A DNA stretch of 62,236 bases, counting the filler, from Babesia bigemina (Eukaryota): NCBI RefSeq assembly GCF_000981445.1. It is 9 parts of 9 records of this genome, joined end to end, with 100 filler letters (N's around TTAATTAATTAA, not from the genome) between each part and the next. Parts side by side here need not be neighbours in the genome. Positions count along the whole stretch, not along the records: positions 14,902 to 24,237 come from NW_012237116.1; 8 more parts are not named here. One strand, given 5' to 3'. A program made the translations under genes and the position numbers. The number at the start of each line of letters is the position of its first letter. The stretch's first letter is position 1. Under the pieces are notes generated by a model. The model saw only the letters and a program-made list of their open reading frames with translations, did not search any database and had not been told where the DNA came from. Shown here one piece after another: positions 14,902 through 61,342 of this stretch.

Positions 14902-15580
14902 ATCGCCCCTTAACTTACTCCACATCGCTCCCTAATCCACTCTACATCGCCCCTTTATCCACCCTACATCACCCCTTAACCCACCTTACATCGCCCCTTT
15001 ACCCACTCCACATCGCCCCTTTACCCACTCTACATCGCCCCTTATCCACTCTACATCGCCCCTTAACCCACTCTACATCGCCCCTTTACCCACTCTACAT
15101 CGCCCCTTTATCCACCTTACATCGCTCCTTAACCAACTCTACATCGCTCCCTAACCCACTCTACATCGCCCCTTATCCACTCCACATCGCCCCTTTACCC
15201 ACTCTACATCGCTCCCTAACCCACTCCACATCGCTCCCTAACTCACTCTACATCGCCCCTTTATCCACTCTACATCGCCCCTTTACCCACTCTACATCGC
15301 CCCTTATCCACTCTACATCGCTCCCTAACCCACTCTACATCGCCCCTTTACCCACTCTACATCGCCCCTTATCCACTCTACATCGCTCCCTAACCCACTC
15401 TACATCGCCCCTTTAGCCACTCTACATCGCTCCTTTATCCACTCTACATCGCTCCTTTATCCACTCTACATCGCTCCTTATCCACTCTACATCGCTCCCT
15501 AATCCACTCTACATCGCTCCCTAACCCACTCCACATCGCTCCCTAATCCACTCTACATCGCCCCTTTACCCACTCTACAT
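14902..15580 (+). repeat. 21-22-bp C-rich array 5' of antigen ORF
   Basis: Directly visible. Confidence 0.95.
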
Positions 15581-15609
15581 CCTTCAAATCACTTCGCCAT
15601 AATACCGCT

Positions 15610-18600
15610 ATGACCTCTATAAATCATTCTAATAACTTGTGCCTTGTCACCCTTCACTTCCCTCCTTCCACCTCTTGCCACTGCCCTGACCATGTGCCGC
15701 CTAGTGAGCTTGACAAGAAATTTGACAAATTTGATAACCTCAAAAACACCTCAAATAACAACCCTACTAACATCCTTACTAACCTCTGTTCCGGCCTCGA
15801 AAAATTCCTCGGCTTCAATCCATCCTCCAAAGGCTACAACGGCAGTGGTATTGTGTACTCTGACCTGGACAGGCTGTGTGACGGGGTGATGGGATTTTTG
15901 CTTAAATGCCTTGAGGGAAGTAAAGAGTTGTTAACACATTATAATCCTGAAATAACGGAGACTATCGAGCATTTAAATAATTCGATAGGCAAGGGACTTG
16001 GCGTTTCGGGATTTGCCTCCGCCATTGGGAAGGTTAAGAGCGGGCTGCAGGGGTATGAGAGGGTGATGGAGGAGAGGATTAAGGAGGTGAAAACGCCTTT
16101 GGAAACGATGCAAGAGAGATTTAGACAGTTAGAGACGTACTTAAATAATTTTAGTAAAAAGAACCTTAAGACTCAATTGACTCATGTCTCTGAACAGGCT
16201 AGGTTGTACTGGACTGAGGCCAATGGTGTTGCACTGTCAAGTGCAGATTTAGATGACGATCTTAAGAAAAAATTAGAACCTGCGGTGGAGGCAGTAAAAC
16301 AGGCCTCTAAAACGTTTAGAGACGTAACACAAAATTCACACGTTAATACAGAGGCTACTCGTGTTGATACGACATTGATAGAGCATGTAAAACACATAAA
16401 GATGGCGCTTGATTACCAAACCAGGAACGTTCAAACTGCGTTAAATAATGGCTACGAAGCAGTGCAAAAAAGCATAGATGATCTTATTAAGATTAGAGCA
16501 GCACATATGCAAGCTATCACGCGTAGCGTCAGTGACGCTAAAATAACAGTCAGTGATTATGTTGACAACTTCGACAATGAGTTCAAAACGCCCATTAGAG
16601 AAGCATTCGAGGAAATCATAAGAAAGCTTTCTGTAGTAGATTCAAAAAAAAACCAAACACAACTCCGGACGGATGTTGATGATATTAAGAAGAAGCTTAT
16701 GGCATTTGGTGATAAACTCAGCCAACATGTACAGAAGTTAGGAATTGGAATAGAGGCCGCGGAAAATACACGTGCAATGGCTGAACAAAAGGCTGGTGAA
16801 GCGTACGATAAGTTGAAAGAAGAAGACGAGGTTGGTAAAAATGTGAAGTCGAAGCTGGGTGAAGAAATTGACAATATTTTGAAAACTAGGAATAATATAT
16901 CTCTTGTCAATAATAAGCTGATAGAGCAAGTTACGGCGTTAGGAGAGTGGAAGTTAGCTGCGGAGAGAGACGCTGAAAAGGCGGTTAAGTGGTGTAACGC
17001 AATTGTTAAGGCGCTGAAGCCGGATAAAGGTATGACTTTTGCAACGAGGTTTCCAGAGATTACAAAGAAGGTGACTGAACTTAATGAAGCATATACTAAA
17101 ACTAAGCAACGCCTTCAAGAGGTTACTCAATTAACTAAGGAAGCTAATACAAAACTTGGGACTATAAAAGACGATGTCATGTCTCAACTGGGTGCTGATG
17201 TGTCCGGTGCTCTATTAGCGCTGAAGGAGACGTTGAAAGCTTCCAAAAACGTACAGAAGCTTGTGAATCATATCAAAGGTTTGAACAACCGAGATAACAA
17301 ATGTCTCGATATCGGTGGATATACAACAAGTGTTCATCTCAGTATTGACAAAATCACCGGGTCGGAAGTCATCGAACCATGGCTTAAGGAGGTTGAAAAA
17401 GAAATTGAGACACCGCTCATACAAGCTGCGCAGGCCGGTGCTACGGCGCTCGATGGTAAAATTAAAAGTGAAGTTAAAATTACACCATTGGCAACAGTTA
17501 ACGACACTGTGCATAAAGTCGACGATGGGGAAACAAAAACTAAAAAGGGTGATATCGAGCATGCCCTTAACATGGTAAAACTGCAGATGGATGAAATTGC
17601 CAAAAAAGTTGAAAAAAACAACGACGATGATACAATTAGGGGTTATCTGAATCATATTCAAACTGGACTCGGTGGCACAGACAGGTGGACATCGAATAAA
17701 GCCGGCGACGGACAAATTTCTGGGCTACAGAGAATCAATACTGCTATTGGCGCATTGCAATCCACTCTGTCGCAACAGCCAACTGCAATCTATAATGGAG
17801 TTGAGGGAATTAAGATGCAGCTACTTGGCGCCAGAAATGCATTGAAATCTGAGAAAGGGCAAGATGTCTTTTTCACTTTGGGAGATTTGAAGACAAAAAT
17901 TGGTCACGTCAGCAACGGGGACTCCCCTCCTGCAGATAGCCTCGGTGAACTCCGCGTACAACTAGCAGAACTACATGCCTCCGAGTACAACCAATTCGGC
18001 ACAATACTGACAGCTATTACAACAGCGCTTGAGAAAGTTAGTCAATTGGAGAACGTTCCAGGTGAATTAGAAAAGAGTAAAAAAGCGGTTGACAATTCAA
18101 TGGAGCAGTTGCACAAACACCTAAAAACACTGAAACTAAAAATCGAAGCAATAGAATCATCCGTAACAAAAGCTGAAGAATCATTGCAGCAGTACACATC
18201 GAACGTTGAGAGTGCCTTACATAACGCGCATAACAGCTCAATTAAAGCCATCAACCATCTCAATGAGCGCCTTACGACGACTGTCAATTCCAGTTTTGAA
18301 ACCATTAAAAGCGTGATAAGATCCCTCTTCGCGAAGCAGAAGCAGGCCGAGCTGGCCGCGCTGGAGAGCGTTGTCACGGCGCAGTTAAAGGAGATTGAGA
18401 GGGTTATTGAGAATGAAAAAGACAGTGGCGTAAAAGGTTTCATAAAGCGGTTGAACAGCGGTATCGCTGCAAATCTCGATAGATCTGTGCTGACTAACGA
18501 CACCACGTTCGTTCAGTTAGCTATGCGAGTTGCTGGTTATGTCGATCCGTTGTTTGAATTTATAAATGAAGAGTTAACACCGCCAAATTCGAGGTCTGCA

Positions 18601-21159
18601 ACGTCATCTATGTCTCAACCTGTGAACCCTTACGCTTCCAAGGTAGACAAAATCCGGAGTGCGCTGGCCACATTACTAACACGTCTTATCAATGGTAAGA
18701 GCAAAACATACAACTTTGATACTCAATTTGCGCTTGATCTGTCATCAGTTCTGGACGCTGTGAACGAGTTAAGCGCAGTGAAATTTGGCGAGGGCAAGCA
18801 TCCTGAGCTCCTCAACATTCTTAGGAGTGGCATGACAGATCTTGGTAAGGAATTAAGGCATGCCTATATTAATGCATATGATAAAGCTATGATGCCACAG
18901 GTTTTGAAAAATGACAAATTGACAATTGATGCTGAGAAATGTTCAAAAGTATGTCTCACTGTAATCTCCATCCTTGGCCTCTCATTAACCATGTTGAAGG
19001 TTAATTGCTGGAGTCTACGTGGACAGCAGATTAACAGAGATGTTGATCTCGGAAAACTATTAGCTGCAGAGGGATACCATGTGTCTGACCGAGGCGAGCA
19101 GAACGGGGAGCTCCAAGACAAGGACATAATGAAAGGTGACCAAGTTCACAAGAGACTGAGTTGGCCAATTAGCAGCGCCGCTACTGATCATTTGACAACG
19201 TGCAAGCCGAACAACAAAGCAGAGAAATTTGATATATTGGACATTCTCAGATGTCTCTCTGATCATCTTCATCAATATTACAGCGTTCGTCACTACGCCA
19301 CATCATCCGCCACTAGGCAACCGAGCAATATCTACGAAATGCTGTGCTGGCTCATAGGTCTTCCACATAATCCAGTCTATCCACAGTTGTCACTTACCGG
19401 CTTTACTGACCTATTTGAGAAACCGAAGGAAGAAAAGAACGCGGACAATGAAGCCGGGGAAGACATCGTTGCTATTAAGAGTCTCAATGACTTAACCTTG
19501 GAGGCCTACCCGGAAAGCATTACAGTAGACAAACTAACAACAACGCTTGGAGAGGTATGTTCTGGATCAAATTCCGTCCTGACTGCCATCCTAGGAAAGG
19601 GCCACGCGGGTGGCATATATGCTTGCGACTTCTCCAGCAACTCACTAAAATTACGATATGCGACCAATATGGACGCTCTAATTTGTCAGCTTTCGGATAT
19701 ACTGAAACGCGTTTACCGGCAGCTGTACTTCCTTTATCAACAATGTCATTACAATCAAAAACATAGTGGATGGCGCGACTGTTGGTATGGTAGGTACGTT
19801 GGAGGTTCGCACTGGCGATGCAATGACAAGCAATGTGTAACTCAAGACTGTAACCAAAAGGCCCACCAAACATCCAACCAAAACGCTAACCAAATGTGTA
19901 AGCAACACCCGAAGTGCGGGCTTAAGTCACCTCTCCAATCCTTCCTCGAAGATGGACTTCCTGGTTTTATGCCGCATACACTAATATCTGAAAAAGGTAA
20001 ATTAGCATGTTCTCAGAAAAACCACGGTAATCTGCTGTGTCATACGCCAATGGGCTTCAGAGATATAAGTGTAATGGCTTCTCATACGAATAGAGGTACA
20101 CACATCTATATGACTCTCTCCGATTTTTGCGGAGGTAAGTTTTCTCCCCTCACCAGGCTATGTAATTTATTTAATTGTCTACTTCCAAGTGCGCCAAAAT
20201 CACTAGATGATATGTTTGGGTTTTTATACCACTTATTACACAGATGGCATGATGATAATAACAAGGATCGTATGACGCATCGGAAAGAGGCGTTTAACGA
20301 TGCTGTCAAAGAGGCCTGTTTTGATGGAGGCTATGATCTCAGCGAAGTATCGTTATTGTTCACATCGAGAAGGCACACATCTTTCGTTTATAGCGATAAT
20401 AAGGCAAATAATTTATATCATAATGATGGTGATCTGTATAGCATACATAGACCCGAGGATACATGTTACACTGCTAACATGAAATGCGGTGCGTACGTAT
20501 CACCGTTGTCTATGGACATACATTCCACATTGTCGTCGAAACATAAAGCGCTATACCTGTCATGGGTCGTTTACTGTACCGAAACGTTCTACAGTCTTCT
20601 TCGAAAATTATACGATGAGTGCTATAATAATTGCGCATCGGCAAATGCGAAATGCTATAGTCACGGATGCTACAAGGAGTGCCTGATTTCAACTGGAAGC
20701 TTATTCCAAGAGTCGCAGCCTAGTACACACTGGCCGCAATGTAGCTCAATTCTGGATTGTAGAATGACACTGCCCACATTATATAGCTCTGGCATGATAT
20801 TTGGAGATAGGGAAATGCTCGAAGGACAGGTCGGCAGTAAACGATATATAAAAAGAACGTGTAAAGATTTCACTGACCAATTAAAAACTGTCATCGGTGA
20901 CACCTCGGTATTGTCTAAAATAATTCACAAAACAATTCCCGAATTCCTATTCACCATCCGCGCACCGTTCCTGTGGATGACCGTCGCGCTCTGGTCACTG
21001 TCCCTCTTCTACCTCATCTGCGTGATGGTTGGCAGACTGGATGTGCTGCATATCAAGTCACACCTGAGGATACCGTCGTCGCACAAGATAACGCCGCAAT
21101 CATTGTTGGCTGCAGCGCAAGTCGGAAGGCTTGCCAAGATATCGTATCTACAACCGTGA
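15610..21159 (+). CDS. ves-like variant surface antigen family protein (AKISYLQP tail class; CGLKSPLQSFLEDGL subtype)
   Basis: 1849-aa ORF with GIVYSDLDRLCDGVMGFL, Cys-rich C-terminus, TM and LDVLHIKSHLRIPSSHKIT..AKISYLQP. Alternative start at ATG 15889. Confidence 0.85.
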   Translation: MTSINHSNNLCLVTLHFPPSTSCHCPDHVPPSELDKKFDKFDNLKNTSNNNPTNILTNLCSGLEKFLGFNPSSKGYNGSGIVYSDLDRLCDGVMGFLLKCLEGSKELLTHYNPEITETIEHLNNSIGKGLGVSGFASAIGKVKSGLQGYERVMEERIKEVKTPLETMQERFRQLETYLNNFSKKNLKTQLTHVSEQARLYWTEANGVALSSADLDDDLKKKLEPAVEAVKQASKTFRDVTQNSHVNTEATRVDTTLIEHVKHIKMALDYQTRNVQTALNNGYEAVQKSIDDLIKIRAAHMQAITRSVSDAKITVSDYVDNFDNEFKTPIREAFEEIIRKLSVVDSKKNQTQLRTDVDDIKKKLMAFGDKLSQHVQKLGIGIEAAENTRAMAEQKAGEAYDKLKEEDEVGKNVKSKLGEEIDNILKTRNNISLVNNKLIEQVTALGEWKLAAERDAEKAVKWCNAIVKALKPDKGMTFATRFPEITKKVTELNEAYTKTKQRLQEVTQLTKEANTKLGTIKDDVMSQLGADVSGALLALKETLKASKNVQKLVNHIKGLNNRDNKCLDIGGYTTSVHLSIDKITGSEVIEPWLKEVEKEIETPLIQAAQAGATALDGKIKSEVKITPLATVNDTVHKVDDGETKTKKGDIEHALNMVKLQMDEIAKKVEKNNDDDTIRGYLNHIQTGLGGTDRWTSNKAGDGQISGLQRINTAIGALQSTLSQQPTAIYNGVEGIKMQLLGARNALKSEKGQDVFFTLGDLKTKIGHVSNGDSPPADSLGELRVQLAELHASEYNQFGTILTAITTALEKVSQLENVPGELEKSKKAVDNSMEQLHKHLKTLKLKIEAIESSVTKAEESLQQYTSNVESALHNAHNSSIKAINHLNERLTTTVNSSFETIKSVIRSLFAKQKQAELAALESVVTAQLKEIERVIENEKDSGVKGFIKRLNSGIAANLDRSVLTNDTTFVQLAMRVAGYVDPLFEFINEELTPPNSRSATSSMSQPVNPYASKVDKIRSALATLLTRLINGKSKTYNFDTQFALDLSSVLDAVNELSAVKFGEGKHPELLNILRSGMTDLGKELRHAYINAYDKAMMPQVLKNDKLTIDAEKCSKVCLTVISILGLSLTMLKVNCWSLRGQQINRDVDLGKLLAAEGYHVSDRGEQNGELQDKDIMKGDQVHKRLSWPISSAATDHLTTCKPNNKAEKFDILDILRCLSDHLHQYYSVRHYATSSATRQPSNIYEMLCWLIGLPHNPVYPQLSLTGFTDLFEKPKEEKNADNEAGEDIVAIKSLNDLTLEAYPESITVDKLTTTLGEVCSGSNSVLTAILGKGHAGGIYACDFSSNSLKLRYATNMDALICQLSDILKRVYRQLYFLYQQCHYNQKHSGWRDCWYGRYVGGSHWRCNDKQCVTQDCNQKAHQTSNQNANQMCKQHPKCGLKSPLQSFLEDGLPGFMPHTLISEKGKLACSQKNHGNLLCHTPMGFRDISVMASHTNRGTHIYMTLSDFCGGKFSPLTRLCNLFNCLLPSAPKSLDDMFGFLYHLLHRWHDDNNKDRMTHRKEAFNDAVKEACFDGGYDLSEVSLLFTSRRHTSFVYSDNKANNLYHNDGDLYSIHRPEDTCYTANMKCGAYVSPLSMDIHSTLSSKHKALYLSWVVYCTETFYSLLRKLYDECYNNCASANAKCYSHGCYKECLISTGSLFQESQPSTHWPQCSSILDCRMTLPTLYSSGMIFGDREMLEGQVGSKRYIKRTCKDFTDQLKTVIGDTSVLSKIIHKTIPEFLFTIRAPFLWMTVALWSLSLFYLICVMVGRLDVLHIKSHLRIPSSHKITPQSLLAAAQVGRLAKISYLQP

Positions 21160-21304: not shown

Positions 21305-22183
21305 AGCTAAGTGCTAAGCAAGCACCCAGGCTAAGTGCTAAGCTGGCAACCAGGCAAAGTGCTAAGCTAGCACCCAGGCTAAGTGCTAAGGTATCAACCA
21401 GGCAAAGTGCTAAGCTAGCAACCAGGCAACGTGCTGAGCAAGCACCCAGGTTAAATGCTAAGCTAGCAACCAGGCAAAGTGTTGACCTAGCACACAGGCA
21501 AAGTGCTGAGCTAGCACACAAGCTAAGTGCTAAGCTAGCAACCAGGCAAAGTGCTAAGCTAGTACCCAGGCAAAGTGCTAACCTAGCACACAGGCAAAGT
21601 GCTAACCTAGCAACCAGGCAACGTGGTAAGCTGGCACGCAGGCAAAGTGTTATGCTAGCAACCAGGCAACTGGTAACCTAGCACCCAGGCAAAGTGCTAA
21701 GCTAGGACGCAAGCAAAGTGATAAGCTGGCAACCAGGCAAAGTGTTGACCTAGCAACCAGGCAAAGTGCTGAACTGGCACCCAGGCAAAGTGGTAACCTA
21801 GCACACAGGCAAGGTGCTAAGCTAGCACACAGGCAAAGTGCTAACCTAGCAACCAAGCAAAGTGCTAAGCTAGCAACCAGGCAACGTGATGACCTAGCAC
21901 ACAGGCAAAGTGCTAACCTAGCAACCAGGCAAAGTGTCAACCTAGCATCCAGGCAAAGTGCTAAGCTGGTAACCAGGCAAAGTGGTAAGCTAGCAACCAG
22001 GCAAAGTGCTAAGCTGGCACCCAGGCTAAGTGCTAAGAAAGCACCCAGGCAAAGTGGTAAGCTAGCAACCAGGCAAAGTGGTAAGCTAGCAACCAGGCAA
22101 CGTGCTGAGCAAGCACCCAGGCAAAGTGGTAAGATAGCACCCAACCAAAGTGCTAACCTAGCACCCAGGCAAAGTGGTAAGCT
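21305..22183 (+). repeat. 24-bp tandem repeat CAGGCAAAGTGCTAA(G/C)CTAGCA(A/C)C
   Basis: Directly visible. Confidence 0.95.
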
Positions 22184-22679
22184 GGCGGATGAACCGTAAT
22201 ATGGTGGGTGTTGTAGCACGTTTATTGCCTGGTGCGTTGAGTTGTGCGTTGACTGTGAGAGGCGTCCGCGTTACCCATTGAGTGAGTGTCACGTGAGGCT
22301 GGGTGATTGGTCGCTAACGTAGCGGTCGTGAAGGCCGCGGCGGGTGACCTAAGTCGTGTGTTGCGAGTCACTCGCAGGGTGGCGTAATCCGCGTTGGCCC
22401 GGTTAAGTAGCATTTATAGGCGGCGATGTAGCGATTGTTAATATCACATTTAGGCACGTAGCCGACACGCTCCGCCAGCATGGCGTCTATACGCGGCTCG
22501 TAGCACGGTGCTGCTGCACTGTGGGAGTTGAGCGCACGGGGTTCGCTGTAATTCTTATGGCGTTGCGAATAGTGAATAATTTAGAGTGACAGTTGGTGCC
22601 GATCACATGCGTCGCGTCAGGTGAAGCCGTGGTATCCTGGGCAGCGTGGGTGTCGGTGGCCCGGGCTGGGGGGATACAG
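22184..22679 (+). repeat. Conserved ~495-bp dispersed element (copy 1), possible promoter or 5' region of the Cys-rich gene
   Basis: Highly similar copies at 24474-24968, 29456-29727 (reverse strand, partial) and 59585-60078. Confidence 0.8.
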
Positions 22680-22692
22680 CGGTGACGGTGCG

Positions 22693-23095
22693 TGTTGATG
22701 AGGTGACTGGGAGCGGCAGTGGTAGTGTTGCAGTTGGTGAGTGCTTGCTAGGTGATTGATACGTTTGCAGGTTGAGGGGACTGGGAGCGGCAGTGGTAGT
22801 GTTGCAGTTGGTGAGTGCGTTGCTAGGTGATTGATATGTCTGCAGATTGAGGGGACTGGGAGCGGCAGTGGTACGTGTTGCAGTTGGTGAGTGCGTTGCT
22901 AGGTGATTGATTATTTTTCGCAGTCTGAGGGGACTGGGAGGGGCAGTGGTAGTGTTGCAGTCGGTGAGTTCTGCTTAAGCGATTGATATGTTCGCAGGTT
23001 GACGGGACTGGGAGCGGCAGTGGTACGTGTTGCAGTTGGTGACTGCTGCTTGAGTGATTGATATGTTTGCAGGTTGAGTGAACTGGGAGGGGAAG
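22693..23095 (+). repeat. ~75-bp tandem repeat of a 40-41-nt exon-like part plus a 34-37-nt GT..CAG intron-like part (5 units)
   Basis: GTGA(G/C)T..GCAG segments at 22737-22770, 22811-22845, 22887-22923, 22964-22997 and 23039-23072. Confidence 0.8.
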
Positions 23096-23554
23096 ATGAC
23101 GCAGTGTATATGTGACAATAGATGTAACAAGCCTGATTGTAGGTGTTGCTACCTGTGTTGCATAAAATGTCGTCGTTGGTGTCCTGAGTGTCGCGAATTC
23201 TACAGTTCGCGCAGAAGCGGAGGGGAATGCCACACTAAGGATTGTCTTGGTTGTGACACTCGTACATGTCAATGTATATGTTGTAGAACTAAACAGATTA
23301 ACGCTCTTCGTGCCCAGCATGCCGCCAGTCAACAGCTTCGCTCTGATTCCTCCGGTTCCTCCTCCTCCCGTGCTCTGCCTCAGCCCGCCGGTCAACTGCG
23401 TTCCACTGGCGACTCTAATCCCTCTACTCCCTCTTCCTCAGCCGTCCTCCCTTACATCGTCGCTGCCGTCGCCCTCATCATCGTCGTCGTCTGCGTCATG
23501 GTCTACTTCCGCGTCCGGCCGTTCCACAGGGTGCGGTATCTACTGCGCAGCTGA
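23096..23554 (+). CDS. Small 18-Cys protein with Ser/Pro linker and C-terminal TM anchor (tail A: YFRVRPFHRVRYLLRS)
   Basis: 152 aa from the ATG in gaagATG context; Cys scaffold shared with three paralogues. Confidence 0.75.
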   Translation: MTQCICDNRCNKPDCRCCYLCCIKCRRWCPECREFYSSRRSGGECHTKDCLGCDTRTCQCICCRTKQINALRAQHAASQQLRSDSSGSSSSRALPQPAGQLRSTGDSNPSTPSSSAVLPYIVAAVALIIVVVCVMVYFRVRPFHRVRYLLRS

Positions 23555-23651
23555 TCGCAATAACCTAACTGGCAACTGACTTCTAATGTTGTGGACAGTA
23601 ATGATTGCGTTGATGATAAATCACATGAGCAGTGAGGTGACTACATCCCCG

Positions 23652-23790
23652 TCCCTACTCCGCCATCGCCGCCGTCGTTTTCATCATCGTCGCCATCTGC
23701 GTCATGGTCTACTTCCGCTTTCCGGTGGGTCGCAACATCCGCGATTTCCTCGTCCGCAAGATACCCTTCTGCATCGCGTTCTACAGCTAA
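23652..23790 (+). pseudogene. Orphan TM/tail cassette, A/B hybrid (PYSAIAAVVFIIVAICVMVYFRFPVGRNIRDFLVRKIPFCIAFYS*)
   Basis: Manual translation; no start ATG ahead of the TM segment and an in-frame TGA just upstream. Confidence 0.6.
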
Positions 23791-24473: not shown

Positions 24474-24968
24474 GGCGGATGAACCGTAATTTGGTAGGTG
24501 TTGTGGCACGTTGATTGCCTGGTGCCTTGAGTTAGGCGTTGACTGTGAGAGGTGTCTGCGTTGCCCATTGAGTCAGTGTTACGTGAGGCTGGGTGATTGG
24601 TCGCTAACGTAGGCGGTCGTGAAGGCCGCGGCGAGTGACCTAAGTCGTGTGTTGCGAGTCACTGGCGGGGTGGCGCAATCCGAGTTGGCCTGGTTAAGTA
24701 GCATTTATAGGCGGCAATGTAACGATCGTTAATATCACATTTAGGCACGTAGCCGACACCGCCGCCAGCATGGCGCCGATACCGCGGCTCGTAGCACGGT
24801 GCTGCTGCACTGTGGGAGTTGAGCGCACGGGTCGCTGCAATTTTAATGGCGTTGCAAATAGTGAATAATTTAGAGTGACAGTTGTTGCCGATCACATGCG
24901 TCGCGTCAGGTTTAGCAGTGGTATCCTGGGCAGCGTGGGTGTCGGTGGCCTGGGCTGGGGGGATACAG
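24474..24968 (+). repeat. Conserved ~495-bp element (copy 2)
   Basis: Matches 22184-22679. Confidence 0.8.
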
Positions 24969-24981
24969 GGGTTAGGGTGCG

Positions 24982-25208
24982 TGTTGCAGTTGGTGAGTGC
25001 GTTGCTTAAGTGATTGATATGTTTGCAGGCTGAGGGGACCGGGAGGGGCAGTGGTAGTGTTGCAGTTGGTGAGTGCTTGCTTAAGTGACTGATATGTTCG
25101 CAGGTTGAGGGGACTGGGAGCGGCAGTGGTACGTGTTGCAGTTGGTGAGTGCGTTGCTAGGTGATTGATATGTTCGCAGGCTGAGAGGACTGGGAGGGGA
25201 GCGGGAAG
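24982..25208 (+). repeat. ~75-bp intron/exon-like repeats (3 intron-like parts)
   Basis: GTGAGT..GCAG at 24993-25028, 25069-25103 and 25145-25179. Confidence 0.8.
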
Positions 25209-25664
25209 ATGAGTTGGGGGACGTGTCAGTGTGACCCTAAATGTACACAGGGTGAATGTAGATGCTGCTATTTGTGTTGTAAAAAATGTATACGATGTTT
25301 TTCTCATTGTCGAAAATTTTATCAAGGCCGCCTACGTGGAGAGGATTGCCATCGTGAAAATTGTGTTAAGTGTAATTCCGGTTGTCAATGTAACTGTTGT
25401 CTACGGAAACCTTATGCCTCCTCCAGTTCTTCCTCCTCTTCATCCAGTGCCGTCCAAGGCCCCGGTTCCTCTGGTTCCTCCTTCTCCAGTGCAGAGCCTC
25501 ACGCCGGTCAACTGCGTCACACGGGCGTCCCTGACTCACCATCCTCTCCTAACGTCCTACCCATCATCATCGTCCCCGTCGCCCTCATCATCGTCGTCAT
25601 CTGCGTCATGGTCTACTTCCGCATCCGTCCGTTCCACAGGGTGCGGTATCTACTGCGCAGCTGA
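25209..25664 (+). CDS. Small 18-Cys TM-anchored protein (tail A)
   Basis: 151 aa; conserved Cys scaffold, Ser-rich linker, TM and YFRIRPFHRVRYLLRS. Confidence 0.75.
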   Translation: MSWGTCQCDPKCTQGECRCCYLCCKKCIRCFSHCRKFYQGRLRGEDCHRENCVKCNSGCQCNCCLRKPYASSSSSSSSSSAVQGPGSSGSSFSSAEPHAGQLRHTGVPDSPSSPNVLPIIIVPVALIIVVICVMVYFRIRPFHRVRYLLRS

Positions 25665-25763
25665 TGAAATAACCTAACTGGCAATTGGCGTCTAATGTTG
25701 TAGACAGTGTTATGGTCGCGTTGATAATGAATCACATGAGCAGTGAGGTGACTACTTCACTCT

Positions 25764-25910
25764 CCCTACTCCGCCATCGCCGCCGTCATCGTTGCCCTCA
25801 TCGTCGCCATCATCCTGCTCGACCTGTGCATCTTCCGCTTCCCGGTGGGCCGCAACATCCGCGATTTCCTCGTCCGCAAGATACCGTTCTGCATCGCGTT
25901 CTACAGCTAA
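25764..25910 (+). pseudogene. Orphan TM/tail cassette B (..IILLDLCIFRFPVGRNIRDFLVRKIPFCIAFYS*)
   Basis: Same peptide as the in-frame C-terminus of 60492-61037, but no start codon. Confidence 0.6.
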
Positions 25911-28691: not shown

Positions 28692-29183
28692 TTAGCTGCG
28701 CAGTAGATACCGCACCTTGTGGAACGGCCGGATGCGGAAGTAGATCATGACGCAGAGGACGACGATGATGAGGGCGACCGGGACGATGATGTAAGGGAGG
28801 ACGGCGGGGGATGATGATGAGGAAGAGGGGTTGGTGTGACTTTGTTGAATCACAGCTTGCTGCTGAAGACTGCGGGCAGAGGAGGAACCTGAGGAAGTGA
28901 CGCCACCGGAGGAGGTGCGGGAATGATGCTGAGTAGTAGATAGATGGGAACGAGTAAGGACGACAGGGCGTTGTCTTTCACAACACTCACATAGACATGT
29001 GCTTTTCTCACAATCATTACATCTCTGAGGTTTGCAGTCCCATGATCCACTTCTGCGCGATTGAGACAACGGAAGACATGGAAGACATTTTGATATCTTA
29101 CATTTTGCACAACACCAGTGACAGCAATTACACACCACACGCTCTTTACATTTTTTGTTACAACTACACGTTAATATGCTCAT
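28692..29183 (-). CDS. Small 18-Cys TM-anchored protein (tail A)
   Basis: 163 aa; gaagATG start context, Cys scaffold, TM and YFRIRPFHKVRYLLRS. Confidence 0.75.
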   Translation of the reverse strand: MSILTCSCNKKCKERVVCNCCHWCCAKCKISKCLPCLPLSQSRRSGSWDCKPQRCNDCEKSTCLCECCERQRPVVLTRSHLSTTQHHSRTSSGGVTSSGSSSARSLQQQAVIQQSHTNPSSSSSSPAVLPYIIVPVALIIVVLCVMIYFRIRPFHKVRYLLRS

Positions 29184-29442
29184 CTTCCTCTCTCCCTCCC
29201 ACTCCCCTCAGCCTGCAGACATATCAATCACCTGGCAACGCACTCACCAACTGCAACTCGTACCACTGCCGCTCCCACTTCCCTCAACCTGCAATCATAT
29301 CAATCACCTAAGCAGCACTCACCAACTGCAACACGTACCACTGCCGCTCCCAGTCCCCTCAACCTGCAAACATATCAATCACTCAAGCAGCACTCACCAA
29401 CTGCAACACGTACCACTGCCGCTTCCAGTCCCCTCATCAACA
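29184..29442 (-). repeat. ~75-bp intron/exon-like repeats (3 intron-like parts)
   Basis: Reverse complement of the 22693-23095 unit. Confidence 0.8.
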
Positions 29443-29827: not shown

Positions 29828-30722
29828 TAAACCTAAAACCCTAAACCCTAAAACCCTAAAACCCTAAACCCTAAAAAAACCCTAAACCCTAAAAACCCTA
29901 AAACCCTAAAACCCTAAAACCCTAAAACCCTAAAACCCTAAAAACCCTAAAACCCTAAAAACCCTAAAACCCTAAACCCTAAAAACCCTAAAACCCTAAA
30001 ACCCTAAAACCCTAAAAAACCCTAAAAACCCTAAAACCCTAAAAACCCTAAAACCCTAAAAACCCTAAAACCCTAAAAACCTAAAACCCTAAAACCCTAA
30101 AACCCTAAACCCTAAAACCCTAAAAACCCTAAACCCTAAAACCCTAAAAACCCTAAAAAACCTAAACCTAAAAACCCTAAAACCCTAAAACCCTAAAACC
30201 CTAAAAACCCTAAAACCCTAAAACCCTAAAACCCTAAACCCTAAACCTAAAAACCCTAAAACCCTAAACCCTAAAACCCTAAACCTAAACCCTAAAAAAC
30301 CCTAAAACCCTAAAAACCCTAAAAAACCCTAAACCCTAAAACCCTAAAAACCCTAAACCCTAAAAACCTAAAAAACCCTAAAAACCCTAAAACCCTAAAA
30401 ACCCTAAACCCTAAAACCCTAAAAACCCTAAACCCAAAAACCCTAAAAACCCTAAAACCCTAAACCAAAAAAACCCTAAAAACCCTAAAACCCTAAAACC
30501 CTAAAACCCTAAAAACCCTAAAACCCTAAAACCTAAACCCTAAAACCCTAAAAACCCTAAACCCTAAAACCCTAAAACCCTAAAAACCCTAAAACCTAAA
30601 ACCCTAAAACCCTAAACCCTAAACCCTAAAACCCTAAAACCCTAAAAACCCTAAAAACCCTAAAACCCTAAAACCCTAAAAACCCTGAAAACCTAAGAAC
30701 CTAAGAAACCTAAAAACCTAAG
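29828..30722 (+). repeat. Telomeric repeat tract (CCCTAAAA)n with variable A-run; chromosome end to the left
   Basis: CCCTA(3-7) units starting at a contig edge and degenerating proximally (CCCTGAAA, CCTAAG). Confidence 0.93.
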
Positions 30723-30759
30723 CCCAGTGACCTGGCCTCCTAACCCTAGAATTCTAGGA

Positions 30760-32954
30760 CCTCATCTACTCATCTTCCTGTTTCTGGCCTTAGATAAGCC
30801 TTGATTCTAATTTGCCTTGTTATTGCTACTCATCTTATCTTATTCAGCTACTCATCTTCCTGTTTCTGGCCTTAGATAAGCCTTGATTCTAATTTGCCTT
30901 GTTATTGCTACTCATCTTATTCAGCTACTCATCTTATCTTATTCAGCTACTCATCTTATCTTATTCAGCTACTCATCTTATCTTATTCAGCTACTCATCT
31001 TATCTTATTCAGCTACTCATCTTATCTTATTCAGCTACTCATCTTATCTTATTCAGCTACTCATCTGATCTTATTCAGCTACTCATCTGCTAGTCTTCGG
31101 CTTTAGATCAGCTACGCTTCTAATCTGCCTCGGCTACGCATCTCATCTTATTCAGCTACTCATCTTATCTTATTCAGCTACTCATCTTATCTTATTCAGC
31201 TACTCATCTTATCTTATTCAGCTACTCATCTTATCTTATTCAGCTACTCATCTTATCTTATTCAGCTACTCATCTTATCTTATTCAGCTACTCATCTTAT
31301 CTTATTCAGCTACTCATCTTATCTTATTCAGCTACTCATCTTATCTTATTCAGCTACTCATCTTATCTTATTCAGCTACTCATCTTATCTTATTCAGCTA
31401 CTCATCTTATCTTATTCAGCTACTCATCTTATCTTATTCAGCTACTCATCTTATCTTATTCAGCTACTCATCTTATCTTATTCAGCTACTCATCTTATCT
31501 TATTCAGCTACTCATCTTCCTGTTTCTGGCCTTAGATAAGCCTTGATTCTAATTTGCCTTGTTATTGCTACTCATCTTATTCAGCTACTCATCTTATCTT
31601 ATTCAGCTACTCATCTTATCTTATTCAGCTACTCATCTTATCTTATTCAGCTACTCATCTTATCTTATTCAGCTACTCATCTTATCTTATTCAGCTACTC
31701 ATCTTATCTTATTCAGCTACTCATCTTCCTGTTTCTGGCCTTAGATAAGCCTTGATTCTAATTTGCCTCGGTATTGCTACTCATCTTATTCAGCTACTCA
31801 TCTTATCTTATTCAGCTACTCATCTTATCTTATTCAGCTACTCATCTTATTCAGCTACTCATCTTATCTTATTCAGCTACTCATCTTATCTTATTCAGCT
31901 ACTCATCTTATCTTATTCAGCTACTCATCTTATCTTATTCAGCTACTCATCTTATCTTATTCAGCTACTCATCTTATCTTATTCAGCTACTCATCTTATC
32001 TTATTCAGCTACTCATCTTATCTTATTCAGCTACTCATCTTATCTTATTCAGCTACTCATCTTCCTGTTTCTGGCCTTAGATAAGCCTTGATTCTAATTT
32101 GCCTTGTTATTGCTACTCATCTTATTCAGCTACTCATCTTATCTTATTCAGCTACTCATCTGATCTTATTCAGCTACTCATCTGATCTATTTCAGCTACT
32201 CATCTATCTTTATTCAGCTACTCATCTATCTTGATTCAGCTACTCATCTATCTATTCAGCTACTCATCTTCCTGTTTCTGGCCTTAGATAAGCCTTGATT
32301 CTAATTTGCCTTGTTATTGCTACTCATCTTATTCAGCTACTCATCTTATCTTATTCAGCTACTCATCTTATCTTATTCAGCTACTCATCTTCCTGTTTCT
32401 GGCCTTAGATAAGCCTTGATTCTAATTTGCCTTGTTATTGCTACTCATCTTATTCAGCTACTCATCTTATCTTATTCAGCTACTCATCTTATCTTATTCA
32501 GCTACTCATCTTATCTTATTCAGCTACTCATCTTATCTTATTCAGCTACTCATCTTATCTTATTCAGCTACTCATCTTCCTGTTTCTGGCCTTAGATAAG
32601 CCTTGATTCTAATTTGCCTTGTTATTGCTACTCATCTTATTCAGCTACTCATCTTATCTTATTCAGCTACTCATCTTCCTGTTTCTGGCCTTAGATAAGC
32701 CTTGATTCTAATTTGCCTTGTTATTGCTACTCATCTTATTCAGCTACTCATCTTATCTTATTCAGCTACTCATCTTATCTTATTCAGCTACTCATCTTAT
32801 CTTATTCAGCTACTCATCTTATCTTATTCAGCTACTCATCTTATCTTATTCAGCTACTCATCTTATCTTATTCAGCTACTCATCTTATCTTATTCAGCTA
32901 CTCATCTTATCTTATTCAGCTACTCATCTTCCTGTTTCTGGCCTTAGATAAGCC
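30760..32954 (+). repeat. Subtelomeric 22-bp satellite CTTATTCAGCTACTCATCTTAT punctuated by a conserved ~55-bp spacer
   Basis: Directly visible; contiguous with the telomere tract. Confidence 0.93.
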
Positions 32955-39960: not shown

Positions 39961-40545
39961 GTGTTGACCAACGTGCTGCCCAAAGTGTTGACCAAGGTGT
40001 TGACCAACGTGTTGACCAATGTGTTGACCAAGGTGCTGACCAATGCCAAGACCAATGTGCTGACCAACGTGTTGACCAATGCCATGACCAAGGTGCTGAC
40101 CAACGTGGTGACCAACGTGGTGACCAAAGTGTTGACCAACGTGTTGACCAAGATGCTGCCCAAAGTGTTGACCAACGTGCTGACCAAAGTGCTGACCAAA
40201 GTGCTGACCTATGTGTTGACCAACGTGTTGACCAAGATGCTGCCCAAAGTGTTGACCAACGTGGTGACCAACCACCTGACCAATGCTCTGACCTGAGTGG
40301 TGACCAACGTGGTGACCAAAGTGCTGACCAATGTGCTGACAAACGTGGTGACCAAAGTGGTGACCAATGTGCTGACCAAGGTGCTGACCAAGTTGATGGT
40401 CACGGCAGCGATGACATGGTCACGGCAGCGATGACATGGGCACGGCAGCGATGACAGTGGTGACTTAAGTGGTGATGATCATCCACTCTACATCGCCCCT
40501 TAACCCACTCTACATCGCTCCCTAACCCACTCTACATCGCCCCTT
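39961..40545 (+). repeat. 12-bp array (39961-40392), 20-bp array (40396-40460) and start of 21-22-bp array
   Basis: Directly visible. Confidence 0.93.
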
Positions 40546-40645
40546 NNNNNNNNNNNNNNNNNNNNNNNNNNNNNNNNNNNNNNNNNNNNTTAATTAATTA
40601 ANNNNNNNNNNNNNNNNNNNNNNNNNNNNNNNNNNNNNNNNNNNN
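40546..40645. other. Artificial contig linker
   Basis: N44-TTAATTAATTAA-N44. Confidence 0.97.
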
Positions 40646-43271
40646 CTCTACATCGCCCCTTTACCCACTCCACATCGCTCCCTAACCCACTCTACATCGC
40701 TCCCTTATCCACTCTACATCGCCCCTTTACCCACTCCACATCGCTCCCTAACCCACTCTACATCGCCCCTTAACCCACTCTACATCGCCCCTTCACCCAC
40801 TCTACATCGCTCCCTAACCCACTCTACATCGCTCCCTAACCCACTCTACATCGCCCCTTAATCCACTCTACATCGCCCCTTTATCCACTCTACATTGCCC
40901 CTTAACCCACTCTACATCGCCCCTTTATCCACTCTACATCGCTCCTTTATCCACTCTACATCGCCCCTTTATCCACTCTACATCGCCCCTTTATCCACTC
41001 TACATCGCCCCTTTATCCACTCCACATCGCCCCTTTATCCACTCTACATCGCCCCTTAACCCACTCTACATCGCCCCTTAATCCACTCTACATCGCTCCT
41101 TAATCCACTCTACATCGCCCCTTAACCCACTCTACATCGCTCCTTTACCCACTCTACATCGCCCCTTAACCCACTCTACATCGCCCCTTAACCCACTCTA
41201 CATCGCCCCTTAACCCACTCTACATCGCTCCCTTATCCACTCTACATCGCTCCTTACCCACTCTACATCGCCCCTTTATCCACTCCACATCGCTCCCTAA
41301 CCCACTCCACATCGCACCTTTACCCACTCTACATCGCTCCCTAACCCACTCTACATCGCTCCCTAACCCACTCTACATCGCTCCCTAACCCACTCTACAT
41401 CGCTCCCTTATCCACTCTACATCGCCCCTTAACCCACTCTACATCGCCCCTTAATCCACTCTACATCGCTCCCTTACCCACTCTACATCGCCCCTTAACC
41501 CACTCTACATCGCCCCTTAACCCACCTTACATCGCCCCTTAACCCACTCTACATCGCCCCTTAACCCACTCTACATCGCTCCCTAACCCACTCTACATCG
41601 CTCCCTAACCCACTCTACATCGCCCCTTTATCCACTCTACATCGCCCCTTAACCCACTCTACATCGCTCTCTTACGCACTCTACATCGCTCCCTAACCCA
41701 CTCTACATCGCTCCTTTATCCACTCTACATCGCTCCCTAATCCACTCTACATCGCTCCTTTACCCACTCCACATCGCCCCTTTATCCACTCCACATCGCC
41801 CCTTATCCACTCTACATCGCTCCTCAACCCACTCTACATCGCTCCCTAACCCACTCCACATCGCCCCTTTATCCACTCTACATCGCTCCCTAACCCACTC
41901 TACATCGCCCCTTTATCCACTCTACATCGCCACTTAACCCACTCTACATCGCTCCCTAACCCACTCCACATCGCCCCTTTATCCACTCTACATCGCCACT
42001 TAACCCACTCTACATCGCTGCTTTATCCACTCTACATCGCTCCCTAACCCACTCCACATCGCTCCCTAACCCACTCCACATCGCCCCTTTACCCACTCTA
42101 CATCGCTCCCTAATCCACTCTACATCGCTTCCTAACCCACTCCACATCGACCTTTTACCCACTCTACATCGCCCCTTTATCCACTCCACATCGCTCCTTA
42201 ACCCACTCTACATCGCCCCTTTACCCACTCTACATCGCCCCTTTACCCACTCTACATCGCCCCTTTATCCACTCTACATCGCCCCTTAATCCACTCTACA
42301 TCGCTCCTTTATCCACTCTACATCGCCCCTTAACTCACTCCACATCGCCCCTTTAGCCACTCCACATCGCCCCTTAACCCACTCCACATCGCCCCTTATC
42401 CACACTACATCGCTCCCTAACCCACTCTACATCGCTCCCTAACCCACTCTACATCGCCTTTTTACCCACTCTACATCGCCCCTTAACCCACTCTACATCG
42501 CTCCCTAATCCACTCTACATCGCCCCTTTATCCACTCTACATCGCTCCCTAATCCACTCCACATCGCTCCCTAACCCACTCCACATCGCTCCCTAACCCA
42601 CCCTTCATCGCTCCCTGACCCACTCCACATCGCCCCTTTATCCACCCTACATCGCCCCTTTATCCACTCTACATCGCCCCTTTATCCACTCTACATCGCT
42701 CCCTAATCCACTCCACATCGCTCCCTAACCCACTCCACATCGCTCCCTAACCCACCCTTCATCGCTCCCTGACCCACTCCACATCGCCCCTTTATCCACT
42801 CCACATCGCCCCTTAACCCACTCTTCATCGCTCCCTAACCCACTCTACATCGCTCCTTAACCCACTCTACATCGCTCCCTAACCCACTCTACATCGCCCC
42901 TTTATCCACTCCACATCGCTCCCTAACCCACTCCACATCGCCCCTTTACCCACTCTACATCGCTCCCTAATCCACTCTACATCGCTTCCTAACCCACTCT
43001 ACATCGCCCCTTAACCCACTCTACATCGCTCCCTAACCCACTCCACATCGCCCCTTTATCCACTCCACATCGCCCCTTAACCCACTCTTCATCGCTCCCT
43101 AACCCACTCTACATCGCTCCTTAACCCACCCTTCATCGCTCCCTGACCCACTCCACATCGCCCCTTTATCCACTCCACATCGCCCCTTTATCCACTCCAC
43201 ATCGCCCCTTAACCACTCTTCATCGCTCCCTAAACCACTCTACATCGCTCCTTAACCCACTCTACATCGCT
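40646..43271 (+). repeat. Contig made entirely of the 21-22-bp array (2.6 kb)
   Basis: Directly visible. Confidence 0.95.
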
Positions 43272-43371: not shown

Positions 43372-43982
43372 TGGTGACCAATGTGCTGCCCAAACTGTTG
43401 ACCAAGGTGCTGACCAATGTGCTGACCAATGTGCTGTCCAACGTGCTGACCAATGTGCTGTCCAACGTGCTGACCAATGTGCTGACCAATGTGCTGACCA
43501 ATGTGCTGACCAATCTGCTGACCAATGCCACGACCAAAGTGGTGACCTAAGTGCTGACCAACGTGCTGACCAACGTGCTGACCAAAGTGGTGACCTATGT
43601 GCTGACCAAAGTGGTGACCTATGTGCTGACCAATGCCATGACCAAAGTGGTGATCCAGATGCTGACCAAAGTGGTGACCAATGTGCTGACCAACGTGCTG
43701 ACCAGAGTGTTGACCAATGTTCTGACCAAAGCGCTGATCAATGTGCTGACCAAAGTGCTGACCAATGTGCTGACCAATGTGCTGACCAATGTGCTGACCA
43801 ATGTGCTGACCAAAGTGCTGACCAACGTGTTGACCAATGTGCTGACCAATGCCATGACCAATGTGCTGACTAATGCTCTGACCAAGGTGCTGACCAAGGT
43901 GCTGACCAATGCCATGACCAAAGTGCTGACCAATGCTATGACCAAAGTGTTGACCAAAGTGCTGACCAATGTGTTGACCAAG
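43372..43982 (+). repeat. 12-bp TGACCAA array
   Basis: Directly visible. Confidence 0.95.
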
Positions 43983-43985
43983 TTG

Positions 43986-44150
43986 ATGGTTCCGGCAGCG
44001 ATGACATGGACACGGCAGCGATGACATGGTTACGGCAGCGATGAAATGGTCACGGCAGCGATGACAGTTACGGCAGCGATGAAATGGTCACGGCAGCGGT
44101 GACATGGTCACGGCAGCGATGGCATGGTCACGGCAGCGATGGCATGGTGA
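43986..44150 (+). repeat. 20-bp array
   Basis: Directly visible. Confidence 0.93.
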
Positions 44151-44167
44151 CCAGAGTAGTGATATAT

Positions 44168-44858
44168 CGACTTTACATCGCCCCTAATCCACTCTACATC
44201 GCCCCTTTACCCACTCTACATCGCCCTTAACCCACTCTACATCGCCCCTTCACCCACTCTGCATCGCTCCCTAACCCACTCTACATCGCTCCTTAACCCA
44301 CTCTACATCGCTCCCTAACCCACTCTACATCGCCCCTTAACCCACTCTACATCGCCCCTTTATCCACTCTACATCGCCCCTTAACCCACTCCACATCGCT
44401 CCTTTATCCACTCCACATCGCTCCCTAACCCACTCTACATCGCCCCTTAACCCACTCTACATCGCTCCTTTATCCACTCTACATCGCTCCTTTATCCACT
44501 CTACATCGCTCCTTTATCCACTCAACATCGCCCCTTAACCCACTCTACATCGCCCCTTAATCCACTCCACATCGCCCCTTTATCCACTCTACATCGCTCC
44601 CTTATCCACTCTACATCGCTCCTTTATCCACTCCACATCGCCCCTTACCCACTCTACATCGCCCCTTTACCCACTCTACATCGCCCCTTAACCCACTCTA
44701 CATCGCTCCCTAACCCACTCTACATCGCCCCTTTATCCACTCCACATCGCTCCTTAACCCACTCTACATCGCTCCCTAACCCACTCTACATCACCCCTTT
44801 ACCCACTCTACATCGCCCCTTTATCCACTCTACATCGCCCCTTAACCCACTCTACATC
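44168..44858 (+). repeat. 21-22-bp array 5' of antigen ORF
   Basis: Directly visible. Confidence 0.95.
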
Positions 44859-51294: not shown

Positions 51295-51582
51295 GTGGTG
51301 ACCAAAGTGCTGACCAAAGTGGTGACCAATGTGCTGACCAATGCCATGACCAAAGTGGTGACCTAGCACCTGACCAATGTGCTGACCAGCGTGCTGACCA
51401 ATGTGCTGACCAATGCCATGACCAATGCCATGACCAATGCCATGACCAAAGTGGTGACCAATGCCACGACCAACGTGGTGACCAATGTGCTGACCTACCA
51501 CCTGACCAACGTGGTGACCCAAGTGCTGACCAATGCCATAACCAAAGTGCTGACCAACGTGCTGACCAACGTGCTGACCAAG
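51295..51582 (+). repeat. 12-bp array
   Basis: Directly visible. Confidence 0.95.
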
Positions 51583-51585
51583 TTG

Positions 51586-51826
51586 ATGGTCACGGCAGCG
51601 AGGACATGGTCACGGCAGCGATGACATGGTCACAGCAGCGGTGACATCGTTACGGCAGCGATGACATGGTCACGGCAGCGATGACATAGTCACGGCAGCG
51701 ATGACATGGTTACAGCAGCGATGACAAGGTCACGGCAGCGATGACAAGGTCACGGCAGCGATGACATGGTCACGGCAGCGATGACATGGTTACGGCAGCG
51801 ATGACATGGTCTCGGCAGCGATGACA
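51586..51826 (+). repeat. 20-bp array
   Basis: Directly visible. Confidence 0.95.
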
Positions 51827-51850
51827 GTAGTGACTTAAGTGGTGATTATC

Positions 51851-60090: not shown

Positions 60091-60491
60091 TGTTGATGAG
60101 GGGACTGGGAGCGGCAGTGGTACGTGTTGCAGTTGGTGAGTGCTGCTTGAGTGATTGATATGTTTGCAGGTTGAGGGGAGTGGGCGCGGCAGTGGTAGTG
60201 TTGCAGTTGGTGAGTGCTGCTTGAGTGATTGATATGTTTGCAGGTTGAGGGCAGTGGGAGCGGCAGTGGTAGTGTGGCAGTTGGTGAGTGCGTTGCTAGG
60301 TGAGTGATATGTTTGCAGGTTGAGGGGACTGGGAGCGGCAGTGGTACGTGTTGCAGTTGGTGAGTGCTGCTTGCGTGATTGATATGTTCGCAGGTTGAGG
60401 GGAGTGGGAGCGGCAGTGGTAGTGTTGCAGTTGGTGAGTGCGTTGCTGGGTGATTGATATGTTCGCAGGTTGAGGGGAGTGGGAGGGGAAG
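60091..60491 (+). repeat. ~75-bp intron/exon-like repeats (5 intron-like parts)
   Basis: GTGAGTGC..GATATGTT(T/C)GCAG units. Confidence 0.8.
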
Positions 60492-61037
60492 ATGACGATG
60501 GGTTGGAGGAAGACGTGCAGATGTGATACTGGTTGTATACAGTTTCAACCATGTAAATGCTGCCCATGGTGTTGTAAAGAATGTATTAAAGGCATTTATA
60601 CCAGTTGCGATGTATGTGCAGCAAATTCCTATCTGAAGCGGCTTAGGAAGCAATGCAATCCTAACGTATGTAAAGCCGGCAAAACGGATTGCACTAATAT
60701 TTACAAATGTGAATGTAACTGTTGTCGACAGAAATGTAAAGAGAGGGATCCCGTCTGCACGCCCCTCGCTCCTCCCCCTCCACCGCCTCCCGCTGATTCC
60801 TCCGATGTTCAGGATCACGCCGCCGGTCAAGAGCTTCTCCCCCGTACCGAAGCTCTCGAACAAGAGAACAATTCTCCACCTTTCCGCCCTAACCCCCAAA
60901 CCATCGCCGCCGTCATCGTTGCCATCATCGTCGCCATCATCCTGCTCGACCTGTGCATCTTCCGCTTTCCGGTGGGCCGCAACATCCGCGATTTCCTCGT
61001 ACGCAAGATACCCTTCTGCATCGCGTTTTACAGCTGA
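60492..61037 (+). CDS. Small Cys-rich (18+2 Cys) TM-anchored protein (tail B: LDLCIFRFPVGRNIRDFLVRKIPFCIAFYS)
   Basis: 181 aa; same start context and Cys scaffold as the paralogues, Pro-rich linker and TM. Confidence 0.75.
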   Translation: MTMGWRKTCRCDTGCIQFQPCKCCPWCCKECIKGIYTSCDVCAANSYLKRLRKQCNPNVCKAGKTDCTNIYKCECNCCRQKCKERDPVCTPLAPPPPPPPADSSDVQDHAAGQELLPRTEALEQENNSPPFRPNPQTIAAVIVAIIVAIILLDLCIFRFPVGRNIRDFLVRKIPFCIAFYS

Positions 61038-61171
61038 TCGCAGCAATTTGTTAGCGCAAACATCGTCATCCATTTTCCACTGATCACCTAACTGCCAACT
61101 GACATCTAATGTCTAGACGGAGTAATGATTGCGTTGATGGCCAATCGCATGGGCAGTGAGTTGACTATAAC

Positions 61172-61282
61172 CCCGCCCCTTACATCATCGCTCCCATACT
61201 CATCATCATCATCGTCATCTGCGTCATGAGCTACTTCCGCATCCGGCCGTTCCACAGGGTGCGGTATCTACTGCGCAGCTAA
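61172..61282 (+). pseudogene. Orphan TM/tail cassette A (PAPYIIAPILIIIIVICVMSYFRIRPFHRVRYLLRS*)
   Basis: Manual translation; matches the C-termini of the other three small genes. Confidence 0.6.
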
Positions 61283-61342
61283 TGACAATAAAGCAACTGG
61301 CAACTGACGTCTAATGTTGTTGACAGAGTAATGATTGCGTTG

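Follow-up and report, generated by a model that had tools for sequence, protein, structure and literature searches.

A 75-bp tandem repeat with intron-like anatomy upstream of a small Cys-rich gene family of Babesia bigemina: a candidate multi-intron 5' leader

The window and its ves1-like genes

We analysed a window of 62,236 nucleotides from the Babesia bigemina assembly GCF_000981445.1. The window consists of contigs joined by eight N-linker-N spacers, so adjacency across the spacers is not real. Six of its open frames, between 1800 and 2080 codons long, end in a ves1-like C-terminus, and on the basis of this C-terminus and of PMC4066756 we call them ves1-like. The Pfam scan of two of these frames gave no VESA match. 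The frame at 15547..21159 (plus strand, 1870 codons) lies upstream of the repeat array at 22699 and on the same strand, and a 24-bp tandem array (21309..22183, plus strand, TRF) stands between this ves1-like gene and the conserved block described below.

Three of the six long frames are open without a nearby ATG (44913, 53083 and, on the minus strand, 13395): the nearest upstream ATG is out of frame and no GT-AG intron is evident. Two of these three carry a duplicated 5' stub. At the other end of the genes, antisense AGGTGAGT clusters were found just 3' of every ves1-like stop present (33, 7197, 21212, 39884, 51218 and 59021, minus strand), and could represent a DNA or RNA 3' element or the donors of antisense transcripts. 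Tandem arrays with units of 12, 20 and 22 bp, the last strongly C-skewed, occur in a fixed order before the ves1-like frames and also behind small genes (109-1759, 39961-43270, 43375-44858, 51295-52897 and 61344-62236). The stretch 29832-32930, where a telomere-type array is followed by a 22-bp subtelomeric repeat with higher periods of 82 and 121 bp, belongs to a chromosome-end contig.

A small Cys-rich gene family

Among these long frames lie four small intact ORFs of 151-181 aa, at 23096..23554 (plus strand, 152 aa), 25209..25664 (plus, 151 aa), 28692..29183 (minus, 163 aa) and 60492..61037 (plus, 181 aa). Each has 18-20 Cys in its first 90 residues (18 in the ORF at 23096), a Ser/Pro-rich stalk (Ser-rich in the same ORF), a hydrophobic C-terminal segment and a basic tail; the hydrophobic segment and the Cys-rich start were read by eye.

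Every small gene carries two TM-tail cassettes of different type, one after the other, with the same 3' module behind each (23420-23790, plus; 25520-25910, plus; 28742-28460, minus; 60870-61285, plus). The first three ORFs use the type-A tail, with type B behind (at the first locus, a separate cassette beyond the stop at 23650..23790, plus strand, start approximate), and in the ORF at 60492 the order is reversed, with a type-B tail and the type-A cassette behind. Among 43 public models of the family, 23 carry type A only, 16 type B only and three both. The tandem cassettes are possibly swappable C-termini, exchanged by recombination or used as alternative last exons.

A search with the ORF at 25209 returned 15 homologues among 20 candidates, all of them B. 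bigemina hypothetical proteins. A profile built from nine members was compared with 1.84 billion representatives, alongside two word-based searches. The profile had 40 matches, of which 38 were family members and two were weak and TM-only; no long ves-like protein was among them, the longest match being 283 aa. The family comprises about 43 models, and all 32 of these whose names were looked up are B. bigemina hypothetical proteins. Pfam reported no family above its cut-off for the four small proteins (no match for three, a single sub-threshold TMEM154 match for the other), and the ESM Atlas gave no usable match for residues 1-70.

The family identifiers are absent from the searchable supplements of PMC4066756, PMC5660447 and PMC9531838, and our search of the open-access literature found no description of the 75-bp repeat or of the small Cys-rich family; likewise, the accessible portions of PMC11370697, PMC5660447, PMC10463595, PMC6381282 and PMC6630957 make no mention of either. 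A metagenome scan with a 20-nt motif of the unit gave one isolated match without surrounding repeat, which we judged to be due to chance.

Four paralogous repeat arrays

Each of the four ORFs is preceded by a tandem array, at 22699..23089 (plus strand; TRF 5.2 copies, 86% matches), 24976..25199 (plus; 2.9 copies), 29196..29436 (minus; 3.2 copies) and 60097..60485 (plus; 5.2 copies). The arrays hold five, three, three and five whole units, respectively, for a total of 16 units of 74-78 bp each (TRF period 75-76 bp). A pattern scan identified 16 intron-like segments (5 + 3 + 3 + 5), one per whole unit, so no unit was dropped from the scan.

The intron-like segments measure 34 nt (eight units), 35 nt (six), 36 nt (one) and 37 nt (one). 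They begin with GTGAGT in 15 of 16 units and with GTGACT in the remaining one, GT being present in all, and every one ends in YGCAG. The internal exon-like parts are 40 nt long in six cases and 41 nt in six, and the six nucleotides preceding the donor are CAGTTG in 15/16 units and CAGTCG in the remaining one. From the last AG to the ATG, the distance is 23, 29, 23 and 29 nt at the four loci. Fourteen of the 16 intron-like parts contain an ATG, versus none of the 12 internal exon-like parts. The initial annotation had described this anatomy (a unit of about 75 bp, the four copy numbers, G-rich segments ending in CAGTTG, GTGAGT...(T/C)GCAG segments, mostly intronic ATGs and a last AG about 23-30 nt before the ATG), and its description is accurate apart from the last locus, which spans 60136-60468 rather than 60135-60467.

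In the array at 22699, the predicted introns are located on the plus strand at 22737..22770 (34 nt, without ATG), 22811..22845 (35 nt), 22887..22923 (37 nt, without ATG, with a box-to-AG stretch 2 nt longer), 22964..22997 (34 nt) and 23039..23072 (34 nt, the GTGACT donor). They are followed by the putative last leader exon (23073..23095, plus strand), which has a TGA at positions 3-5 in frame with the ATG at 23096. At the other loci, the scan placed the predicted introns at 24993-25028, 25069-25103 and 25145-25179 (plus strand); at 29397-29364, 29322-29289 and 29247-29213 (minus strand); and at 60136-60169, 60210-60243, 60284-60318, 60360-60393 and 60434-60468 (plus strand).

The region upstream of the arrays

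Sequence comparison revealed a conserved block of about 500 bp common to the loci, with several upstream ATGs (22184..22698, plus strand, at the first locus); it is full at three loci and cut by a gap at one. An initiator-like TYAYWWW motif, of the kind described in PMC4148916, occurs at 22444, and at three of the four loci it lies 258-293 nt before the first donor. If transcription started at this site, the spliced leaders would be 367-477 nt long and contain 3-4 ATGs. Splicing would leave in place one of the upstream ATGs, which at 3/4 loci precedes the first donor by about 40 nt. The median 5' UTR of B. bovis given in the accessible text of PMC4148916 is 152 nt, so a leader of that length would have its start within the array or behind it.

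At the far 5' end of the block there is a candidate 30-nt GT...AG intron with CTAAC near its AG (22293-22322, 24583-24612 and 59694-59723, plus strand), present at all three loci that reach that position. If this segment is an intron, the leader begins farther upstream than the initiator-like site.

Intron-like anatomy of the repeat

We read the array as a multi-intron 5' leader built by repeat expansion, and give this reading a probability of about 0.58. The units are likely mini-exons plus mini-introns of a non-coding leader, multiplied by tandem duplication, as judged from the pattern of conservation among units, from the stop that precedes each ATG in frame and from acceptors that public gene models also use. 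This part of the initial interpretation stands as likely.

The main alternative is that the array acts at the DNA level or is never spliced: it would lie upstream of the start site, or would simply remain unspliced, with its splice-like words being incidental, and would represent one more ves-locus block of the 12-, 20-, 22- or 24-bp type (a promoter element, a recombination substrate or neutral sequence). We consider it unlikely, albeit the most serious of the alternatives. Coherently with it, the window is rich in tandem arrays at fixed places around ves1-like genes, and a leader of the B. bovis median length would begin inside the array. Furthermore, AGGTGAG motifs recur in antisense after the ves1 stops, where splicing is not an obvious explanation for them. 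A further caution on the multi-intron reading is that the exon is nearly as conserved as the signals (pi 0.08) and contains an acceptor-like GCAG in all 16 units, so some of the invariance may reflect only a recent common origin. Lastly, a similar donor, branch-like box and YAG at 25-45 nt occurred in 106 of 5000 dinucleotide-shuffled units (about 2%), and there were several repeat families in which such a test could have been passed.

Against this alternative, variation among the 16 units follows the anatomy of an intron. The minimum number of mutational events was one in the six columns of the donor (+1 to +6), zero in the last four intron nucleotides and three in the nine columns of the branch-like box, both of whose adenines are invariant; it was 11 in the 11 columns of the intron middle, eight in the eight columns of the 3' tract (four of the eight from one unit) and 14 in the 41 exon columns. 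A column permutation gave p = 0.004 for a freely varying middle and p = 0.03 for conserved signals, values that are optimistic, the region borders having been drawn by eye and the columns not being independent of one another. Every change in intron length falls between the signals. The box itself, GTGA.TGAT, is placed 11-19 nt before the intron 3' end in 15 of 16 units and 2 nt farther in one; the branch-point consensus is YTRAY.

Only the sense strand of the unit carries the splice signals; its reverse strand fails the donor-box-YAG intron test. The other tandem arrays of the window mostly lack intron-like segments, 12 of 13 having none on either strand and one having a single match, on its reverse strand. 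The position of the last acceptor, 23-29 nt from the ATG at 4/4 loci, also speaks against a DNA-level repeat. In addition, the GT that opens the exon differs in 5/16 units and the GT of the predicted donor in none, so the invariance is specific to the predicted donor. Because of the same loss in five units, we rejected recursive splicing at AG-GT.

The initial annotation had stated that piroplasm introns are typically only tens of nucleotides long. The accessible text of PMC3467087 gives a mean of 60 bp for B. bovis and 20-25 bp for B. microti, and that of PMC2612703 gives modes of 55 and 80 bp for T. parva. The predicted 34-37 nt would fit short piroplasm introns, the comparison being with these three species. 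No canonical four-run G3 G-quadruplex motif was found in the spliced or unspliced leaders; the mean G4Hunter score rises from 0.66-0.84 in the unspliced to 0.94-1.23 in the predicted spliced leader.

On the multi-intron reading, the array would be transcribed and then spliced at the predicted sites, each 75-bp unit contributing one spliceosomal intron of 34-37 nt and one exon of 40-41 nt. Selection would preserve the splicing of every copy, and the leader would thereby remain short, without extra ATGs, at any copy number. In the 41-nt exons, the additional base produces a donor-like GTACGT, which lies 16 nt upstream of the main donor; the 40/41 polymorphism may thus affect donor choice more than frame, and some alternative donor use is predicted for units with the longer exon.

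Upstream ATGs and a possible regulatory role

It had also been proposed that the array is a splicing-dependent translational switch, in which regulated retention of introns places upstream ATGs in the leader and shuts off translation, with copy number tuning the effect. We regard this as doubtful. The partition of ATGs between introns and internal exons agrees with such a switch, as does the closing TGA found in 16/16 exons, and retention of all introns would raise the number of ATGs in the leader from 3-4 to 6-9. However, retention of any ATG-bearing intron produces a uORF of only four codons (14/14), closed by the TGA of the next exon, and the last of these uORFs ends 18-24 nt before the main ATG. 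Short uORFs often permit reinitiation. The ATG is also less strictly conserved than the neighbouring splice signals: two of the 16 units have lost it, each through a different change, and none has lost GT, AG or the box adenines. Moreover, with 29 of 41 exon columns invariant, three invariant columns in a row are often expected, and further upstream ATGs remain in the leader after splicing. Retention would probably dampen translation; the four-codon uORFs resulting from failed splicing would lower it somewhat, which would be a by-product rather than a purpose-built switch.

A bolder version is a splicing rheostat, in which copy number and the one-base exon polymorphism, through its competing donor, set the amount of correctly spliced, uORF-free mRNA of each paralogue, the first intron having arisen by duplication of a 37-nt monomer. 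We hold this to be improbable. If true, it would be a heritable control, tuned by recombination, on a variant gene family beside ves1. A regulatory role of either kind would matter more, and it has little support.

Public gene models and the coding potential of the units

Many public models treat the units as coding exons, which would give the proteins a Gly/Ser/Val-rich N-terminal extension. Repeat-derived peptides are present in 28 of the 43 family models, which indicates that the array is family-wide, and four models (P0012, P0020, P0029 and P0040) read from these peptides in frame into the Cys-rich domain. Nevertheless, we consider coding exons very unlikely. At 4/4 loci of the window, the stretch from the last acceptor to the main ATG contains a TGA in the frame of that ATG (position 3 of the last exon), and no ORF of the four fully spliced leaders reaches the main frame. 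Eight models (P0001, P0002, P0024, P0026, P0028, P0030, P0031 and P0035) begin directly at the Cys-rich ATG, and the toggling of exon length between 40 and 41 nt also speaks against coding.

The initial annotation had argued from frame, on the ground that exons of 40 and 41 nt rotate into a TGA. The TGA is indeed there, and the argument is incomplete, as alternating 41- and 40-nt exons could stay open by frame arithmetic; what excludes coding is the in-frame TGA of the last exon.

The public model P0023 corresponds exactly to 60096-61034 and has five GT-AG introns, four of which end at acceptors predicted here. It can stay open only with donors of four types, one intron of 19 nt and one of 188 nt, the latter removing the first third of the Cys-rich domain. 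These introns, together with the in-frame TGA at 4/4 loci, suggest that the repeat units are likely non-coding and that many public N-termini are likely wrong. According to the methods of PMC4066756, the public B. bigemina models are ab initio and were trained on B. bovis; hence they are not independent evidence of splicing, and the agreement on acceptors tells us that a Babesia-trained predictor accepts these sites. As a whole, the models splice the array inconsistently, as coding exons. Many N-termini of P0003-P0023 and others (BBBOND hypothetical proteins), spliced in differing ways, look like translations of the leader.

Expression of the family

None of the 31 family models checked, out of the 32 with known names, appears in the supplement table of PMC9806345, which lists the roughly 3,720 genes that exceed 1 CPM in blood stages or kinetes. 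As described in the accessible part of that source, the reads of another strain were mapped, and only 23 genes of unplaced contigs are in the table, so that variant families mapped from one strain to another are typically absent, and multi-mapping and strain divergence could explain the absence here. According to PMC10632439, splice-aware aligners also place spurious introns between repeats. Three family members are numbered beside the strongly kinete-upregulated genes BBBOND_0312490, 0100160 and 0312170 (PMC9806345, supplement 1), which may be chance.

That the family is silent or pseudogenic, and its leader a vestige that kept its intron form from an ancestral expressed copy, agrees with the 0/31 models passing this expression filter and with the orphan tail cassettes behind each ORF, and is hardly credible given that so few unplaced-contig genes pass the filter at all and that the four ORFs are intact, with Cys spacing and tail conserved despite strong divergence.

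Origin of the units

The mean identity between units is 0.908 within loci (14 pairs) and 0.906 between loci (52 pairs), and the same variants of the intron middle recur at different loci and positions. The equality of the two values led us to reject concerted evolution within each locus. Taken together with the shared variants, it points to exchange among paralogues combined with slippage or unequal crossing over. Changes in copy number would result from slippage or unequal recombination, in which intron and exon are copied as one, and exchange between paralogues would account for the unit variants common to several loci.

The two halves of the unit resemble each other. Alignment of the intron half to the exon half gave p = 0.003 in a letter shuffle of one unit; with dinucleotide shuffling the similarity is modest (p = 0.008-0.08; 10 of the 12 related units fell below 0.05). 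At 29289-29406, TRF also detected a 37-bp period with 58% matches. On the strength of this likeness and period, we speculate that the 75-mer may be an old dimer of a 37-mer, one half of which has turned into an intron.

If the predicted introns are spliced, the arrays would offer a family-wide, population-scale case in which repeat expansion changes the number of introns, and intron gain, loss and exchange could be counted across dozens of paralogues; the published cases are single genes. The public models of this unnamed B. bigemina family, whose N-termini are probably leader translations, would then also need correction. The arrays also draw attention to small Cys-rich membrane proteins encoded beside the ves1 variant-antigen genes.

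Comparison with known systems

The small genes resemble BbigVes2/smORF genes in being small, multicopy and located in ves1 neighbourhoods. BbigVes2, as presented in the accessible text of PMC4066756, is homologous to the 5' end of ves1b and has a signal peptide without a TM segment. Unlike it, the proteins described here begin with a Cys-rich region, lack a hydrophobic N-terminus and have their TM segment at the C-terminus; on these features, the hydrophobic segment and Cys-rich start having been read by eye, we do not assign the family to BbigVes2.

Variation in intron number has a precedent in the ves1beta genes of B. bovis, which have up to 11 introns (accessible text of PMC4066756). In both cases, paralogues of a family from the variant-antigen regions of Babesia differ in intron number. 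The ves1beta introns, however, interrupt ves1 genes, whereas the predicted introns of B. bigemina would stand before the ATG of small genes that are neither ves1 nor ves2.

The initial annotation had suggested intron gain by tandem duplication. This is likely right in the sense of repeat expansion, a whole predicted intron plus exon being copied with each unit, and not in the sense of the strict AGGT mechanism. The latter, tandem genomic duplication at AGGT, excludes simple copies of existing introns, according to the accessible text of Yenerall and Zhou 2012 (PMC3443670), so it could apply only to the first intron of the array. The likeness of the two halves of the 75-mer, both ending in TTGCAG, recalls such a duplication, while the 3-5 copies, as duplicates of an existing intron, set the arrays apart from it.

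The closest parallel is CNN00420 of Cryptococcus neoformans, where strains differ in how many copies they have of a repeat of about 107 nt that contains a whole intron, with ESTs in support (Sharpton et al. 2008, accessible text of PMC2395259). In both systems the unit holds a whole intron plus exon (predicted in Babesia), the introns are near-identical (mean unit identity about 0.91 here), copy number varies, and slippage, unequal crossing over or gene conversion has been proposed. CNN00420 is a single-copy gene with a unit of about 107 nt and EST-supported splicing; the Babesia array, with its predicted introns, has a 75-nt unit in a probably non-coding leader and belongs to a family of about 43 models. 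Here copy number was compared among paralogues (5, 3, 3 and 5), and unit variants are common across them.
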